64,000 bases of DNA, from assembly GCA_024672315.1 (NCBI GenBank), contig GCA_024672315.1_4714.1; one strand, given 5' to 3'. A program made the position numbers and the translations under genes. Below are positions 11,690-45,791 of this stretch, piece by piece (position 1 is the first letter of the stretch; the number at the start of each line of letters is the position of its first letter). Source of the DNA: a phage. Below the pieces are notes generated by a model. It was not told the origin of the DNA, ran no database searches, and worked only from the letters and a program-made list of their open reading frames with translations.

Positions 11690-12052
11690 TTAAAGCGTTC
11701 TGAAGAGTTCTGTCGCGTTCTCGTCACGTAAACAGGCTTCGTTCAACAACTCCGCCAACAACTTCGATCTAACTTCAACGAATGTCCTGGTACGATGCTC
11801 CCAGTCTAAACGGATGGTGTAGGTATCATCCATGTTTCTGTGGTCCACAACAGATGTTGAACAGCGCGTTTCTTGTTTATTCACAGCACTCCAGACATCA
11901 CGGATAATCGTCATGCCTTTCTTGGTACACGTAAACGTTAAGATACAACGATTATTCGCTGCTTCTTCACAAACGTGAATAAATTCACTTCGTAGCGATG
12001 AGGTCTTGGTCAATCGATCGATAGCGAGCGATAAACCGATACGTTGTTGCAT
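11690..12052 (-). CDS. hypothetical protein
   Basis: 120 aa, AAGGAA RBS. Confidence 0.5.
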   Translation of the reverse strand: MQQRIGLSLAIDRLTKTSSLRSEFIHVCEEAANNRCILTFTCTKKGMTIIRDVWSAVNKQETRCSTSVVDHRNMDDTYTIRLDWEHRTRTFVEVRSKLLAELLNEACLRDENATELFRTL

Positions 12053-12053
12053 A

Positions 12054-12479
12054 TCAAATTCCTTCTTTCAAAATCTCATTAAGACCGTCAGTAATCCAGT
12101 CGAACTTCGTCTTAATCATGGCTGGGTTCAATCCATATACTTCCCACACAAGCTGGGGTTTATGTGTTCCATCGTCCAAACAAAGCACATCGATTGAGAG
12201 TACCATACCACCCGTCAATTTCATGTTCTCGCAACTACGAAGATATGCGGATTCTAGCAATACTTTCCCTAACGCAGTGCAAGCAAATGTTAACCGGGAA
12301 GAGTACAGGTACGATGACGTTTTACAGTAGGTTGCTGATATCGGTTGAATATGTTTGCGGAGTTTGGCGTCTTCACGTAAAAGCAATAACGTGTGATGTA
12401 ACCGCGTATGCTCGGTAACCGATGAGCTATACTCACCGATACACTCTTCGGCGACTGATTTAGGCCATTTAATTTTCAT
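12054..12479 (-). CDS. hypothetical protein (possible paralog of 12495-12938)
   Basis: 141 aa, GAGGAA RBS; N-terminus MKIKWPKSVA resembles MEIKFCKSIA of neighbour. Confidence 0.5.
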   Translation of the reverse strand: MKIKWPKSVAEECIGEYSSSVTEHTRLHHTLLLLREDAKLRKHIQPISATYCKTSSYLYSSRLTFACTALGKVLLESAYLRSCENMKLTGGMVLSIDVLCLDDGTHKPQLVWEVYGLNPAMIKTKFDWITDGLNEILKEGI

Positions 12480-12494
12480 GTTCGATTCCTCGTA

Positions 12495-12938
12495 TTAACG
12501 CTGTGTTCCATTCGATAAGCGGGTGGTATCAAAACGATCCAGTTGGTGTACAATGCTATCAGCAACACGATGCAAATAGTGTATTTTGTCCATTCGTGAA
12601 ATCGCAGAAATCGTCCAGCAAGCCTCTGACGTCCAATAGGTGCCGTCTTCACTAAGGCTAACGTTATAAACTAACTTCGTCATCACATTTCTCGCCTTAT
12701 GCTCAGCAGACCAGAATATGTTTTCTAACACATCCTTCCCCGTTTGTGAAAACACGAACCCAAGCTTCACGTCGAAGTCGGATGCTTCAAGATTAACGCA
12801 GTGAAGATGATTCTCTAACGGCGCAAAAGAGGCTAAACGTTCCAGCGCATGTTGCAGTGTGGGATGATCGAGCTTTTCGAGATCATCCGCAGGTTGTTCA
12901 GGTACAATCGCGATCGATTTACAGAATTTAATTTCCAT
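12495..12938 (-). CDS. hypothetical protein
   Basis: 147 aa, AGAGGA RBS. Confidence 0.5.
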   Translation of the reverse strand: MEIKFCKSIAIVPEQPADDLEKLDHPTLQHALERLASFAPLENHLHCVNLEASDFDVKLGFVFSQTGKDVLENIFWSAEHKARNVMTKLVYNVSLSEDGTYWTSEACWTISAISRMDKIHYLHRVADSIVHQLDRFDTTRLSNGTQR

Positions 12939-13050
12939 GGTAGGTTCCTCTTGATAGTGGTTGATGATAGTAACGGGGACGGCGATGTCCCCTTGGTTTC
13001 TTATTGCCCCGCCCGAACCCGATGAGGTACAGGCGGGTGATGTTGATGCG

Positions 13051-13458
13051 TTATAGCGGCATCAGACGTTCTTTAAGTTGGGTTAACTTATTTGCAACGA
13101 TGTTCTCAACGTCGATCATCTTGTTCATGTTGTCGAGGGTATCCTGCCAGATGAAAATATCCACGGAACCGGTTCCGACTAACGCGTTCTCAGGACGATG
13201 GTCGCGGGTCACGTAGCGTGGTCTCTGCGGGCAGGTTTGTAACTCGATCCAAAGCGCATCTAACGGACCACGGTCCGTGACACCTAAGGCGAAGAATTCA
13301 CCTCGTACGACCAGAACATCATCAGCCGTCCTGACACGGGTTGATCCTTCGTACACCAATTCCATCTTTGCTCGACAGGCTGGGTTCTCGTTCCACGCCT
13401 GGACGGCATCGGCAAGGGCTATTGACGTTGCGGTGGTGTTCGTTTGATCATGTTGCAT
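13051..13458 (-). CDS. hypothetical protein
   Basis: 135 aa, AGGAG RBS. Confidence 0.5.
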   Translation of the reverse strand: MQHDQTNTTATSIALADAVQAWNENPACRAKMELVYEGSTRVRTADDVLVVRGEFFALGVTDRGPLDALWIELQTCPQRPRYVTRDHRPENALVGTGSVDIFIWQDTLDNMNKMIDVENIVANKLTQLKERLMPL

Positions 13459-13535
13459 TCTAAGCTCCTGTAACGCTCTCTAAGCGTCGTTTTAAGTTAA
13501 GGTATAGTTTCCCTTCTTTGGATTCGTTTATTGCG

Positions 13536-13811
13536 TTATACGGCTTTTCTGTGCGCGTAGAACGCCTTCGTTCCGTTGTTGATTGCTTCAACCACATCCC
13601 GGGTTAACACAACGGCGTTATCGCTTCGAGACGACGGTGCGTAATACCCTTCACCGTTCTCGGTAATCAGGCGATAACGGACTAAGCCTATACTCGGTTC
13701 AACACGTAGCACCTTCTCAAGTTTGTATTTGATGATCTTCGTCAGGCTGACTGTGTCTGACGCGTAGATTGCTTTATAAACCTTGTTCTTTGCTGTCGGT
13801 TTCATCAACAT
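13536..13811 (-). CDS. hypothetical protein
   Basis: 91 aa ORF, weak RBS. Confidence 0.4.
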   Translation of the reverse strand: MLMKPTAKNKVYKAIYASDTVSLTKIIKYKLEKVLRVEPSIGLVRYRLITENGEGYYAPSSRSDNAVVLTRDVVEAINNGTKAFYAHRKAV

Positions 13812-13851
13812 GATTTCTGTTGTACTTTCCTTTTCGCTTGTTGGTGTTGGA

Positions 13852-14151
13852 TTAAGGTTTAGGTTCCGTTTTGTGTTGTGCGAGTAGTGTGTTGATCTGC
13901 TCCCGCTGTTCTTTTAAGCATGCGGGAAGTTGGTCTTCCCGTACCGTTCCGATTTCCAACGTGATGTACCAGCGTTGTTCGGAAGCCTGCCATTGAAAAC
14001 TGCTCTGTAACCTCAGGATGTTAGGATCACGTACCTTGCTTGCGCTGTAGCGATCGAACCAATCCAGGTATTCTGCTTTCCCTTCCTCGTCGGCAACGTA
14101 ACGCTGCACGCTGTTCTTCCCTTTGTTTTCGTATCCCGTTGCACGTATCAT
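13852..14151 (-). CDS. hypothetical protein
   Basis: Start moved to ATG 14151 with AAGGAG RBS (track start 14208 lacks RBS and overlaps upstream gene). Confidence 0.45.
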   Translation of the reverse strand: MIRATGYENKGKNSVQRYVADEEGKAEYLDWFDRYSASKVRDPNILRLQSSFQWQASEQRWYITLEIGTVREDQLPACLKEQREQINTLLAQHKTEPKP

Positions 14152-14174
14152 GCGAATGTTTCTCCTTGGTTGTA

Positions 14175-14924
14175 TTAGGGATGGCGCAACATAGTCACAT
14201 CCCAGCATACCAGCTTGCTTTTCTCAAGCATCTTCTGCGCGATATCAACGCTAACTCTAGGATGCATGACAGGTAGCCAACGTTCGTTAAGTACCTTCGC
14301 TTCCAGGCGTTGTTTGCGGGGATTGTAGCGCGCTTCGCTAACCCATGTGTAACCGAAAGGATGGATAACCCGTGGGTAGTAACGTTTAAGCATCACCAGT
14401 CTTTGCTGATAAAGCTTATCGGAACCCTCGCCAACGAATAAGGCAACCCGTTCCAACCGCTTGGTGTAATACGTTCCGGTGGTATGATTGATCCAACCAG
14501 GAAGCGTTCGTACGTCATTTTCAAGTGTTCCTGATACGTTGTGCACTTCACCGCTATACACCGTCCCAACAACCTGATTCGCTGCGTCCACCATCGACCG
14601 TGGCAAAGCATCGGCGGTAGGATACAACCATGCGTCCCCAAGCTGCTCTCCCGACGCAAGTACTCGTAGTCCGCTTGCGCTCATCCGTTGCGGATGCTGA
14701 CTCTTATGCGCACGCAACTGCACCACAGATAAGTCCGCTGGATAGGCGACACAACAACCCCGCTGACGGAACCGTCCAACCTCACCATCCATCCCTTCGA
14801 TCATGCTTCCTTCCGAACCGTTCCACCAACGTTTAACCTTCACGCATTCTGCTTGCACCGCTTCAGGCAACGTTAGATAATCGTGCTCGATAAACACCAC
14901 ATCAAAAATTAATTCATTGTTCAT
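14175..14924 (-). CDS. hypothetical protein
   Basis: 249 aa, AGAGGA RBS; first gene downstream of the promoter-motif pair at 15006-15072. Confidence 0.55.
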   Translation of the reverse strand: MNNELIFDVVFIEHDYLTLPEAVQAECVKVKRWWNGSEGSMIEGMDGEVGRFRQRGCCVAYPADLSVVQLRAHKSQHPQRMSASGLRVLASGEQLGDAWLYPTADALPRSMVDAANQVVGTVYSGEVHNVSGTLENDVRTLPGWINHTTGTYYTKRLERVALFVGEGSDKLYQQRLVMLKRYYPRVIHPFGYTWVSEARYNPRKQRLEAKVLNERWLPVMHPRVSVDIAQKMLEKSKLVCWDVTMLRHP

Positions 14925-15005
14925 GTAAAAAGATCCTCTGTTTCACGTTAACTAAACAACGTGTTGATTTCTATTTGACAGAATACGAACATTGTACGTA
15001 TCTAT

Positions 15006-15028
15006 CACTTAGGTAACGCTTACGCGTC
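15006..15028 (-). promoter_or_regulatory. partial copy of conserved motif
   Basis: CACTTAGGTAACGCTTACGCGTC shares first 11 nt with the motif. Confidence 0.3.
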
Positions 15029-15031
15029 GCG

Positions 15032-15054
15032 TTCATGATGCATGGCATCATGAA
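15032..15054. promoter_or_regulatory. perfect palindrome, operator-like
   Basis: TTCATGATGC-ATG-GCATCATGAA between two promoter-motif copies. Confidence 0.4.
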
Positions 15055-15072
15055 GGTAATATAGTCGTGAAA
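15052..15072 (-). promoter_or_regulatory. conserved motif, candidate promoter for gene 14175-14924
   Basis: GAAGGTAATATAGTCGTGAAA, ~128 nt upstream of ATG 14924; abuts palindrome 15032-15054. Confidence 0.45.
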
Positions 15073-15758
15073 GGATTTGTGTTACAGCAAGGGTTTTGTT
15101 GTTTTTAAGAAGGGATGGATTTAGAAGAGGTGTTGCAAGCAAGGAAGGTAAACGAGGATAGGTATTTTGATTTAAGTAAGTAAGATGTTATCTGTATTCG
15201 TTAAAAGTGTATTGTCTATCTTAAGTTATGTCTTATTGTTTAATCGTTTAATATTTTTATCTAAATAGGTTTAACTCTATCTTGTTTGTATATTTAAATT
15301 AAATCAATAAGCTTATCTTCAAAACAATGGATAACATGTGTTTACTACCTTAACGGTAACACATGTCATCTGTGCATTACACTTCGTTACATGCTAATTA
15401 AATCGGATAACTCAAAAAACATTTGTGATACTCTTCTTCACGTTGTTCATCAGAGTATCCCGTCTATACTCATTGCATTCGTATACGACATAACCGTTAT
15501 ACGCTAACGCTACGCTTATAGCTTGATAACTCTAAGGATAAAAACATAAACTCGCTTCGCTCGTTTAGTTTTTCTTTTTCTTAGAGTTATCCTGTTGCTC
15601 GTCTCTAAAGGACTTCGCTCCTCCCCCGTCCCCCGAAGGGGCCGAGGTCGTGGAAATTTTACTTTCCAAATACATTTACAACATCTGTAAACTTTTACTC
15701 CAGGTACTTAATCTTATCATTAGAAATTATAAAAGAGAAGAATAAACACAAACATAAA

Positions 15759-15791
15759 CCTTCCTCCAACCCAACAGGGAAGGAGGAAGGG
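15759..15791 (-). terminator. CCTCC-family hairpin H3 after gene 15807-16700
   Basis: CCTTCCTCC-AA-CCC-AACA-GGG-AA-GGAGGAAGG; identical to H9. Confidence 0.65.
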
Positions 15792-15806
15792 AGAGATTAA
15801 TTAAAA

Positions 15807-16700
15807 TTAATCAGCGACGTTATAACCGAATACGACTTTACCGTAGGTGTGAGTACCGTCAGCTAATGACAGCACCAGCACGTGGTTGTACGTAGCGTTA
15901 ACGCCCTTGTCGGTAGACTGGGCGGTAGCACCGTTATAGACAAAGGTAGCCGTTTGCAGATTGGTTTTCAGCTCATTGATGATATCATCACTTACACCGG
16001 TCTGCTCTTTGATCAGCGTAGTCAGGTTACCTGCTAAGCCTGCATCGATATTTACTTCGTTGCCGGTAATAGCTTGTAAACCTGCGGTGTAAGTACTGAA
16101 GTCTAACGGATAGGTTAACAGACGTGCTGAGGTCTTGGTACCATCGCCTTCATCAACGTAGGTTAAGTTACCTAGATTGGTAACCTTGATGATGTTAGCC
16201 AGATCCAGCGTGGTGTTATAAACTTTAACTTGAACAGAGCCGTACCACGCCAACGAATCTTCTTTGGCTTCCAGGGTGATCGTCTGGATACCATGCTGGT
16301 CGAAGGTAACCGGCGTAGCTAACGTTTCGGCTTTGATGTCTTTCGTTTTATCCAGGAACTTGTCACCGGAAGGCGTGATCATACCGTAGCGTTGAGCTAC
16401 GAGGTCGACCACATCACCGATGGTGGTGTTAGCAGTAACGTTAACACGTACGGCGATCTTCTGGAACCACTTAGCCAGATCCAGACGATGGTAGGTAACA
16501 TCGCGGTCATTGAAGTAAGGGGTACCATCACCAGGGCTAAGCGTTAAAGTTGCTTCTGGAGCAGAATCACTTTTGGATTTAAGAACGTATTTAAGATCAG
16601 AGTATTGGAATTCGGCACCAGTGTCGGCGTTGAGTTTGTTAATCTCATCAACGATAAGTTGCCAAGGTGTTTTTAAAGTAAGCGAAACTTGAGTTGCCAT
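15807..16700 (-). CDS. abundant virion-type protein, member of ~300-aa paralog family
   Basis: 297 aa; strongly biased enterobacterial codon usage; shares YxR[IL], R[YF]G[ILM] and LAW[YT]GSV blocks with 16842, 27766, 29588 and 30450; hairpin H3 follows 16 nt after stop. Confidence 0.65.
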   Translation of the reverse strand: MATQVSLTLKTPWQLIVDEINKLNADTGAEFQYSDLKYVLKSKSDSAPEATLTLSPGDGTPYFNDRDVTYHRLDLAKWFQKIAVRVNVTANTTIGDVVDLVAQRYGMITPSGDKFLDKTKDIKAETLATPVTFDQHGIQTITLEAKEDSLAWYGSVQVKVYNTTLDLANIIKVTNLGNLTYVDEGDGTKTSARLLTYPLDFSTYTAGLQAITGNEVNIDAGLAGNLTTLIKEQTGVSDDIINELKTNLQTATFVYNGATAQSTDKGVNATYNHVLVLSLADGTHTYGKVVFGYNVAD

Positions 16701-16841
16701 TTTCTACCTCTATGGTTGTTACATCACTCTCAAAAGATGTAAGTGTTTACAGAAATTAATATATTTTATATTAGTGTGAATAATATGGAGAACGACTCCG
16801 AATCTCCTTTTCGACCATCAAAAATCAGAGGACACATTATC

Positions 16842-45642: not shown

Positions 45643-45791
45643 TGAAAGTATCCTTTACAGAATTAACTTATATAAGTCGGTCGATAGACCATAGCGTACA
45701 CGCGTGCATGCGCCACTATAGTATCAGTAAACACTTACCGTTATTGAGGTCGTGATACAACACTAAAAATGCCGCATAACTTTTCCCTACG

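Follow-up and report, generated by a model that had tools for sequence, protein, structure and literature searches.

Small RNAs derived from intergenic regions and 5′ untranslated regions are known from the nucleus-forming jumbo phages phiKZ and 201phi2-1, where they were found by transcriptomics with a length filter of <250 nt and where some are conserved in position across genera (PMC11512511, PMC8244752). A consensus for the early promoters of both phages is available (PMC7058600, Table 2), and the early octamer of phiKZ has also been documented elsewhere (PMC7598289). Phages of this kind serve as a model for viral compartments and are candidates for therapy, and their non-coding functions are almost unmapped. 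No described replication origin of a nucleus-forming jumbo phage was found in the literature searched, and the phage transposon-mutagenesis papers contained nothing on non-coding regions or phage origins. Here we describe a gap at positions 14925-15806 of a 64,000-nucleotide stretch of phage DNA (GenBank assembly GCA_024672315.1, contig GCA_024672315.1_4714.1), which is referred to as the window. The phage is a relative of Escherichia phage vB_EcoM_Goslar (hereafter Goslar), a nucleus-forming jumbo phage of the Chimalliviridae, with an identity of ~94% and nearly coinciding coordinates. The gap is a composite intergenic control region of Goslar-like nucleus-forming jumbo phages. Judged from sequence comparison, its ultra-conserved 284-nt core has about an even chance of being the gene for a new structured non-coding RNA of ~280 nt, encoded on the minus strand and specific to Goslar-like phages.

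Both flanking genes, gp022 and gp021, lie on the minus strand, so that the gap must be read on this strand, from 15806 down to 14925. In this direction the terminator of gp022 is followed by the core, a variable AT-rich spacer, an early promoter and the leader of gp021 (Table 1). A protein search with gp022 gave 71 clusters with 50-94% identity, and loci were taken from many of them; Goslar-like assemblies are numerous in read sets of Salmonella, E. coli and Shigella. The main alignment comprises 15 genomes whose gp022 proteins are 78-94% identical to that of the window; a pattern scan of metagenomes added eight further loci, and 22 core loci were examined overall. Among the 15 aligned genomes, 94% of the core columns are invariant and the mean pairwise divergence is 0.020, as compared with 0.184 for gp022 overall, 0.115 for its codon positions 1 and 2 and 0.322 for position 3. 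The core evolves about 9 times slower than gp022 and about 16 times slower than the third codon positions of gp022, which argues for a strong sequence-specific function missed by annotation. Loops and linkers are as invariant as stems, and near-invariance extends to all 22 loci, which come from many samples. The edges of conservation are sharp; it begins exactly at the palindromic motif GTAAAAGTTTACAGA and stops at a run of U residues. The rare substitutions within the core share the lineage split of the flanks (L010 and L012-L015), indicating that conservation was inherited and maintained rather than produced by a recent sweep or transfer. The equivalent segment of Goslar spans 15430-15717, and nhmmer searches of the full Goslar genome with the whole core and with each hairpin module revealed no second copy. 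Rfam gave no match in the window at the gathering score and, at E values up to 10, only chance-level matches outside the core. Transfer RNAs and transfer-messenger RNAs were also scanned for, and none was found.

When folded as minus-sense RNA, the core reached z = -5.39, and none of 200 shuffles folded as well. The prediction is a series of 7-9 hairpins, which recur in the folds predicted for every relative. The consensus structure, computed on 20 distinct core sequences, contains 78 local pairs in which 99.9% of cells are paired; displacing the partners by 1-3 columns lowers this to 37-53%. On the minus sense, standard pairs account for 8 of 11 variant pair types under the consensus model and for 8 of 9 under a model with one long hairpin in the H6 region; the plus sense yields only 4 of 11 and 2 of 9. 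A further five pairs are fixed as G-U, equivalent to A-C on the other strand, and canonical pairs make up 99.7% on the minus versus 92.0% on the plus strand. Together, the strand-specific substitutions and the fixed G-U pairs point to the fold of a minus-sense single strand, most naturally RNA. Three of the 78 pairs are altered on both sides; helices 1, 3 and 9 are supported and five helices never vary. The core surpassed all 500 of 500 shuffles in the number of cells with changes on both sides and in covariation score, and did not surpass them in the number of pairs changed on both sides or in further pair types.

Three variants were found in hairpin H3, all of which keep the minus-sense pairing: a CU to UC swap opposite GG, a change from U-G to U-A and an inversion of the tip from UUCG to CGAA in the metagenomic locus L026. 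In this locus (L026:1025-1327, minus strand) the tip GCCCCUUCGGGGG is replaced by UCCCCCGAAGGGG, which looks like a hairpin-tip inversion event, and a G-to-A change in the stem restores a U-A pair. The first-pass annotation, made from the letters of the window, had already pointed out this GC-rich hairpin, which is present at 15624-15647, together with a 12-bp inverted repeat (15525-15536/15580-15591), whose arms were found to extend to 20 nt. Hairpin H2 never varies, so variation is uninformative for or against it. In the H6 region, the consensus model gains two compensatory pairs (A-U to G-C and U-A to C-G), and the changes in L018, L024, L027 and L035 fit the long hairpin through wobble pairs. 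Two candidate interactions were rejected. Pairing over 9 nt between the H7 loop and the gp021 leader hairpin is expected by chance at such a length and is lost in a second lineage while the loop is invariant. Among CsrA-type GGA sites, the sole good candidate, CAGGAU, varies to CAUGAU or CAAGAU.

If the core is an RNA gene, transcription of the minus strand would start from or just past the palindrome, and the RNA would adopt the 7-9 hairpins and terminate close to the U-run at 15414-15419. As loops and linkers are as invariant as stems, it would work through sequence-specific contacts with a conserved partner, which might be a protein or an RNA of phage or host origin. Several points weigh against this proposal. 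Thermodynamics separates neither strand nor type of molecule, with z = -5.31 for the plus strand and z = -5.33 with DNA parameters, and the invariance of the loops fits a protein-binding element at the DNA level equally well. Variation is too scarce for strong covariation, given three two-sided pairs and the invariance of H2, H4, H5 and H7. Moreover, the H6 region can be folded in two competing ways: the long hairpin is disrupted in five group-B sequences, and the consensus model meets a G-G clash in L035-L037. With 7 nt between H7 and the U-run, the 3′ edge lacks a canonical intrinsic terminator. Finally, the palindrome is possibly an operator and not a promoter, and no Goslar transcriptome was found in the literature searched.

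The palindromic motif recurs between genes. Its degenerate form, GTAARWGTTTACWGA, has three sites in the window versus 0.07 expected; the other two lie between the divergent genes gp022 and gp023 (16739-16753, plus strand) and upstream of the major capsid gene (45724-45738, minus strand). Goslar contains the motif in five exact copies; a further site, at 188961, has one mismatch, and two overlapping sites, at 81200/81211, have two mismatches. According to the annotation tables these sites are intergenic, with the sole exception of 176758, which extends into the final codons of gp243. Relatives preserve the half-sites of the gp022/gp023 copy and vary its central two bases, a pattern expected of a site bound by a protein dimer. 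We infer that the motif serves the middle or late programme as a promoter or operator. Behind two of the Goslar palindromes come about 150-190 nt of non-coding DNA and then a canonical terminator, so that these two may mark further small RNA genes. At the palindrome locus at 176.5 kb, the three genomes compared are 98% identical throughout. In the form GTAAR-NN-YTTAC the motif is also found near the nuclear-shell gene chmA, and its Goslar sites include 173098, 176758, 188961 and 81200.

Table 1. Features of the gap and of its flanking genes in window coordinates, arranged in the direction of reading
Feature	Position	Strand	Basis
gp022 homologue, virion structural protein (DUF7941), upstream of the gap	15807-16700	-	open reading frame; Pfam DUF7941; PHROG 'virion structural protein'
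Intrinsic-type terminator H0 of gp022: stem CCTTCCTCCTTCCC / GGGTTGGAGGAAGG (15759-15790), then T-rich tract (15741-15758)	15741-15790	-	inverted repeat; T-tail read from sequence
T-rich linker, lineage-dependent sequence	15699-15758	-	15-genome alignment
Palindromic motif GTAAAAGTTTACAGA, half-sites GTAAA / TTTAC, centre GTAAA-AG-TTTAC, exact 5′ edge of the core; putative promoter or operator	15684-15698	-	motif scan, alignment
Ultra-conserved single-copy core, candidate structured non-coding RNA of ~280 nt	15415-15698	-	15-genome alignment, fold, Goslar search
Hairpin H1, GUUUACA / UGUAAAU	15674-15692	-	consensus fold; one pair U-A to U-G in three relatives
Hairpin H2, UGGAAA / UUUCCA	15651-15668	-	consensus fold
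Hairpin H3, CCUCG-G-CCCC-UUCG-GGGG-A-CGGGG	15624-15647	-	fold and variants
Hairpin H4, GAGGA / UCCUU, loop GCGAAG	15608-15623	-	consensus fold; invariant
Hairpin H5, A-rich / U-rich inner stem, GCGAAGC tip flanked by tandem G-A	15525-15591	-	fold; invariant in 20 distinct sequences
H6 region, ambiguous fold: a single long hairpin (most genomes) or three short ones (consensus)	15462-15522	-	fold
Hairpin H7, GAUACUCU / AGAGUAUC, invariant 17-nt loop	15427-15459	-	consensus fold
U-run, 5-9 U in relatives, limit of conservation and possible 3′ end	15414-15419	-	alignment
Dispensable segment: hairpin 15330-15370 and two GGATAAC copies	15321-15414	-	deleted in L005, L016, L017; indels in others
AT-rich spacer, about 21% G+C, indel-rich, AGATAA / AGATAG repeats all in one direction	15170-15320	-	composition, alignment
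Conserved G-poor segment (4% G) upstream of the early promoter	15096-15169	-	composition, alignment
Chimallivirus early promoter (virion RNA polymerase type), ...TTTCACGACTATATTACC; octamer TATATTAC at 15056-15063	15046-15095	-	motif scan
gp021 leader, including the 43-nt insertion	14925-15045	-	alignment
43-nt insertion directly after the promoter	15004-15046	-	window phage and one relative (viral contig) only
gp021 5′ leader: hairpin 14944-14963, Shine-Dalgarno sequence AGAGGA 14934-14939	14925-15003	-	sequence, alignment
gp021 homologue, first gene of the small-protein operon	14175-14924	-	open reading frame

Earlier claims about the general nature of the gap were borne out. It had been called the sole long non-coding stretch of the window, and the list of open reading frames of the window indeed contains none of at least 45 aa between 14925 and 15806; the homologous Goslar region (14972-15825) has zero annotated features. 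In Goslar, this is the sole annotated gap of >340 bp in the first 64 kb and the largest of the whole genome. It is also AT-rich, with 34.9% G+C versus ~47% in the window, though unevenly so, with 29% in the spacer (15101-15414) and 40% in the core. Its description as a regulatory hub is right as well, since it combines a terminator with a chimallivirus early promoter, a repeat array and an operator-like palindrome. Every fully assembled Goslar-like locus with a gp022 at least 78% identical (15/15) has a gene-free gap of 760-920 bp after this gene, and gene callers place no gene in it in the 15 assemblies. The gp022 proteins of the window and of Goslar are 89% identical. Terminator H0 consists of G+C-rich 14-nt arms followed by TTTATGTTTGTGTTTATT (minus strand) downstream of the stop codon, as expected of an intrinsic terminator, and its stem is kept in all relatives with a divergence of 0.088 versus 0.020 in the core. 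Goslar has a second large annotated gap of about 820 bp outside the window (82469-83289), whose neighbours are an HNH/NUMOD1 endonuclease gene and a fragment of a DNA polymerase; it may hold the remains of an intron or a mobile element.

The distribution of the core is narrow. In L009, whose gp022 is 50% identical, the terminator is directly followed by an early promoter and a small membrane-like reading frame, without core and without spacer. The stretch between the terminator and the next called gene of this relative (L009:4883-5256) contains an early-promoter-like site and an uncalled, membrane-protein-like reading frame of about 70 codons. In a relative of 77% identity the contig stops at the terminator. 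Many gp022 clusters are known only as contigs of about 1 kb, and three independent short-read contigs (L019, L034 and L038) end 34-46 nt past the gp022 stop codon, inside the terminator and at the start of the conserved block. Such breaks are likely due to branching of the assembly graph where co-occurring strains converge on identical sequence. Neither the gap with the flanking gene ends, compared with E. coli genomes and plasmids, nor the core, searched against E. coli in distant mode, gave a match. In a distant-mode search of a phage collection with the gap, Goslar alone matched; profile-guided scans of viral and species-representative genome contigs returned the same three viral genomes or none, and a core-pattern scan of genome contigs returned no match.

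Between core and early promoter the sequence is far more variable. Only 3% of the columns are invariant in the dispensable segment next to the core. The AGATAA/AGATAG repeats of the spacer start at 15318, 15282, 15262, 15221 and 15193. Goslar has five AAGATAA copies, which form the only cluster of this word in its 237 kb genome, and the relatives have 2-6 AGATAA copies with irregular and variable spacing; the units measure just 6-7 bp. Repeated TATCTT words, which read AAGATA on the minus strand, had been reported before and are present three times in the gap of the window (P = 0.05) and five times in that of Goslar (P = 0.002). The same holds for three copies of GGATAAC, one of them inverted (15329-15335 and 15405-15411, plus strand; 15586-15592, minus strand), against about 0.12 expected, a count that none of 500 dinucleotide shuffles of the gap reached, and for GGATAAA at 15536. 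The copy at 15329 lies in the segment deleted in L005, L016 and L017, the one at 15405 is altered in L010, L016, L017 and L018, and the other two GATAAC-type words are the two arms of one conserved hairpin. Over the whole window, GGATAAC occurs 19 times versus 7.4 expected and DnaA-box-like 9-mers with one mismatch 29 times versus 15.6; most of this excess is inside genes and thus probably reflects composition or codon effects rather than binding sites.

The main alternative, in which we place considerably less confidence, is that the gap might be a cis-acting element of the phage DNA in which the hairpin block and the AGATAA spacer cooperate. On this view it would serve as an origin of replication or, with lower probability, in packaging or in organising the genome. 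Either a transcript from the palindrome region would make an R-loop or primer in the AT-rich spacer, or the hairpins would be extruded from single-stranded DNA. In support of this, the core is single-copy within the largest annotated non-coding region of Goslar, and the spacer has a G+C content of 29% overall and about 21% in its repeat part. The AAGATAA cluster of Goslar is unique and one-directional, relatives keep 2-6 AGATAA copies, and GATAAC words are enriched in the gap (0/500 shuffles reach the count). The fold is as significant with DNA as with RNA parameters, total loop invariance is compatible with protein binding, and an RNase H is encoded by Goslar. Unusually stable DNA mini-hairpins of the GCGAAGC kind occur in single-strand origins of small phages, and tips of this type are enriched here, with two copies versus 0.04 expected. 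However, there is no turn in the GC skew of the whole genome near 15 kb, and no replication genes are nearby, the neighbours being a virion protein gene and small early genes. Repeats of 6-7 nt with irregular and changing spacing and number are unlike typical iterons of 17-22 bp. The absence of core and spacer from L009 means that such an element is not a universal requirement of the lineage, and the changes compatible with pairing only through wobble favour a single-stranded fold, more naturally RNA. A combination of transcript and origin appears improbable to us. As an RNA-primed or RNA-licensed replication origin of Goslar-like phages, or one of several, the gap would use the palindrome as promoter of a multi-hairpin RNA that hybridises in the AGATAA spacer, and DNA synthesis would start there inside the phage nucleus.

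It is also rather unlikely that the core is part of the flanking transcripts. It could be a multi-hairpin 3′ extension or insulator of gp022 that backs the terminator and stabilises this abundant late message; alternatively, it could form the structured 5′ portion of a long late leader running into the gp021 operon. In favour of this, the core consists of successive hairpins and is placed immediately between a late gene and an early operon of the same strand, and complex terminator motifs and small RNAs derived from 5′ untranslated regions occur in related phages (PMC11512511). Nevertheless, a strong terminator with a T-tract already precedes the core, separated from it by a variable 58-nt linker. 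Insulation or stabilisation would not need invariant loops and linkers, and ordinary terminators drift, as the divergence of H0 illustrates. Towards the operon, the segment that follows the core is deleted or rearranged in relatives and contains a promoter of its own.

Recent spread of a selfish or hitch-hiking segment, instead of function, is a very unlikely cause of the conservation. The genomes are mosaic, with blocks of ~100% identity elsewhere (e.g. window 12200-14000 versus Goslar), and the more distant L009 does not have the element. Against this stand the lineage split shared by core and flanks, the near-invariance in all 22 loci and the lack of terminal repeats, target duplication or a second copy. 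Even less credit is due to a hidden small protein gene. The longest reading frame of the core, of 36 aa (15565-15675, minus strand), is open in all relatives, and one of 38 aa lies on the plus strand (15391-15507). However, the former has no Shine-Dalgarno sequence and its substitutions are not codon-like, since roughly half of the few are non-synonymous and third positions are otherwise invariant. The latter begins in the indel-rich segment, and length changes in the T/A run disrupt its frame; none of the 15 assemblies has a gene call here.

The origin that the first-pass annotation had suggested, one dependent on host DnaA and built on GGATAAC/TTATCC boxes, is scarcely credible. The words are locally enriched and an AT-rich region adjoins them, as such an origin would have (15101-15414, 29% G+C). 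The repeats cannot, however, be called DnaA-box-like: by eye, the TTATCC-containing words match a DnaA box at 6-7 of 9 positions, and no 9-mer within one mismatch of TTATCCACA is found in the gap or anywhere in 11885-16775. Furthermore, the GGATAAC copies are deletable, altered or arms of a hairpin, and cumulative GC skew, a check proposed at the time, follows gene orientation and reaches neither a maximum nor a minimum near 15 kb, whether computed for the window or for the whole of Goslar. By inference from the exclusion of host factors from phage nuclei (PMC9365700), it is also improbable that host DnaA gains access to the replicating genome. Discovery of a structured RNA accounting for the region had been named as an outcome that would speak against an origin; the ultra-conserved 284-nt block with its strand-specific base-pairing evidence goes part of the way towards it.

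Downstream of the spacer, the early promoter combines the AT-rich motif TATATTAC / TACATTAC at 15056-15063 with the extended consensus and lies upstream of the operon of small genes. The distant relative L009 retains it as well. The extended consensus is matched by at least 13 Goslar sites; every one of them lies on the minus strand, and one is upstream of chmA. This Goslar family reads ...TTTCACGrCTAYATTACyt..GTGA and agrees with the early consensus of phiKZ and 201phi2-1, and none of its members is annotated in the record; they include the sites at 2567, 43266, 49732, 86705, 113797, 142800, 160791, 166069, 172978, 187639, 201944 and 226695. In the window, sites of the family lie at 15046-15095 and at 2520-2527, both on the minus strand. 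The 43-nt insertion behind the promoter forms a hairpin at 15032-15054 (TTCATGATGC / GCATCATGAA). A similar sequence follows the Goslar early promoter at 226695, an indication that promoter-proximal leaders have exchanged material. The palindrome CACGTT...AACGTG that had been described in the leader exists, although its coordinates were 6 bases off and should read 14944-14963.

Neither gp021 nor the rest of its operon has any Pfam or PHROG match. A role of gp021 as initiator was considered and dropped, as there are no family matches and the AlphaFold model, with a predicted local distance difference test score (pLDDT) of 48, is too poor for a fold search. The gene occurs in two allelic types with a mutual identity of only about 40%, and the type of the window is unalignable to that of Goslar at the DNA level over about 450 bp (14381-14836). 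From these alignments, the difference is a mosaic replacement adjoining the conserved gap.

If the core acts as an RNA, it would constitute a new family that is open to the knock-down tools already used on Goslar, dCas13d and antisense oligomers; as a DNA element, it would be a candidate origin. If the gap were an RNA-primed origin, it would be the first defined origin of any nucleus-forming jumbo phage, as far as the literature searched shows. For Goslar-like genomes, the practical yield is twofold: a consensus for early promoters and a palindromic motif that is associated with late genes.

Several known systems resemble parts of the gap. Like the DnaA-box clusters of bacterial oriC regions, it is AT-rich with recurring TTATCC-containing words; unlike them, it lacks complete DnaA boxes, relatives do not conserve the words and the skew does not switch. 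Origins of the iteron type are found in phages and plasmids, for instance lambda ori, SPP1 oriL and P1 oriR. The gap shares with them a one-directional array of short words in AT-rich DNA that is unique in the genome, but its unit is 6-7 bp long and differs in spacing and copy number among close relatives, and no adjoining initiator gene is identifiable. Transcript-primed origins are represented by ColE1 RNA II, T4 oriF/oriG and the T7 primary origin. In their layout, which that of the gap resembles, a promoter-like element is followed by a transcribed segment, which has multiple hairpins in the case of RNA II, and by an AT-rich region, and the RNase H of Goslar would fit such a scheme. There is, however, no homology, and the AT-rich part of the gap varies in length and content, so the analogy is one of layout only. 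The site at 15046-15095 agrees with the core octamer TATATTAC of the phiKZ early promoters and with the extended Goslar consensus; it accounts only for the promoter-proximal 50 bp of the gap and not for the core.

The core itself can be compared with RNAs. GOLLD, ROOL and HEARO are large structured RNAs in Rfam that are often borne by phages or prophages and without a known role. Like these, the core is a highly conserved, phage-borne unit with multiple hairpins, but it is much smaller, has far weaker covariation and finds no Rfam match even at E up to 10. Compared with the small RNAs of phiKZ-like phages, the core is longer (about 280 nt), is known from sequence alone, is restricted to Goslar-like phages and has no sequence relative beyond Goslar in the phage collection. 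It nevertheless resembles them in being a short, non-coding, intergenic unit of a nucleus-forming jumbo phage.

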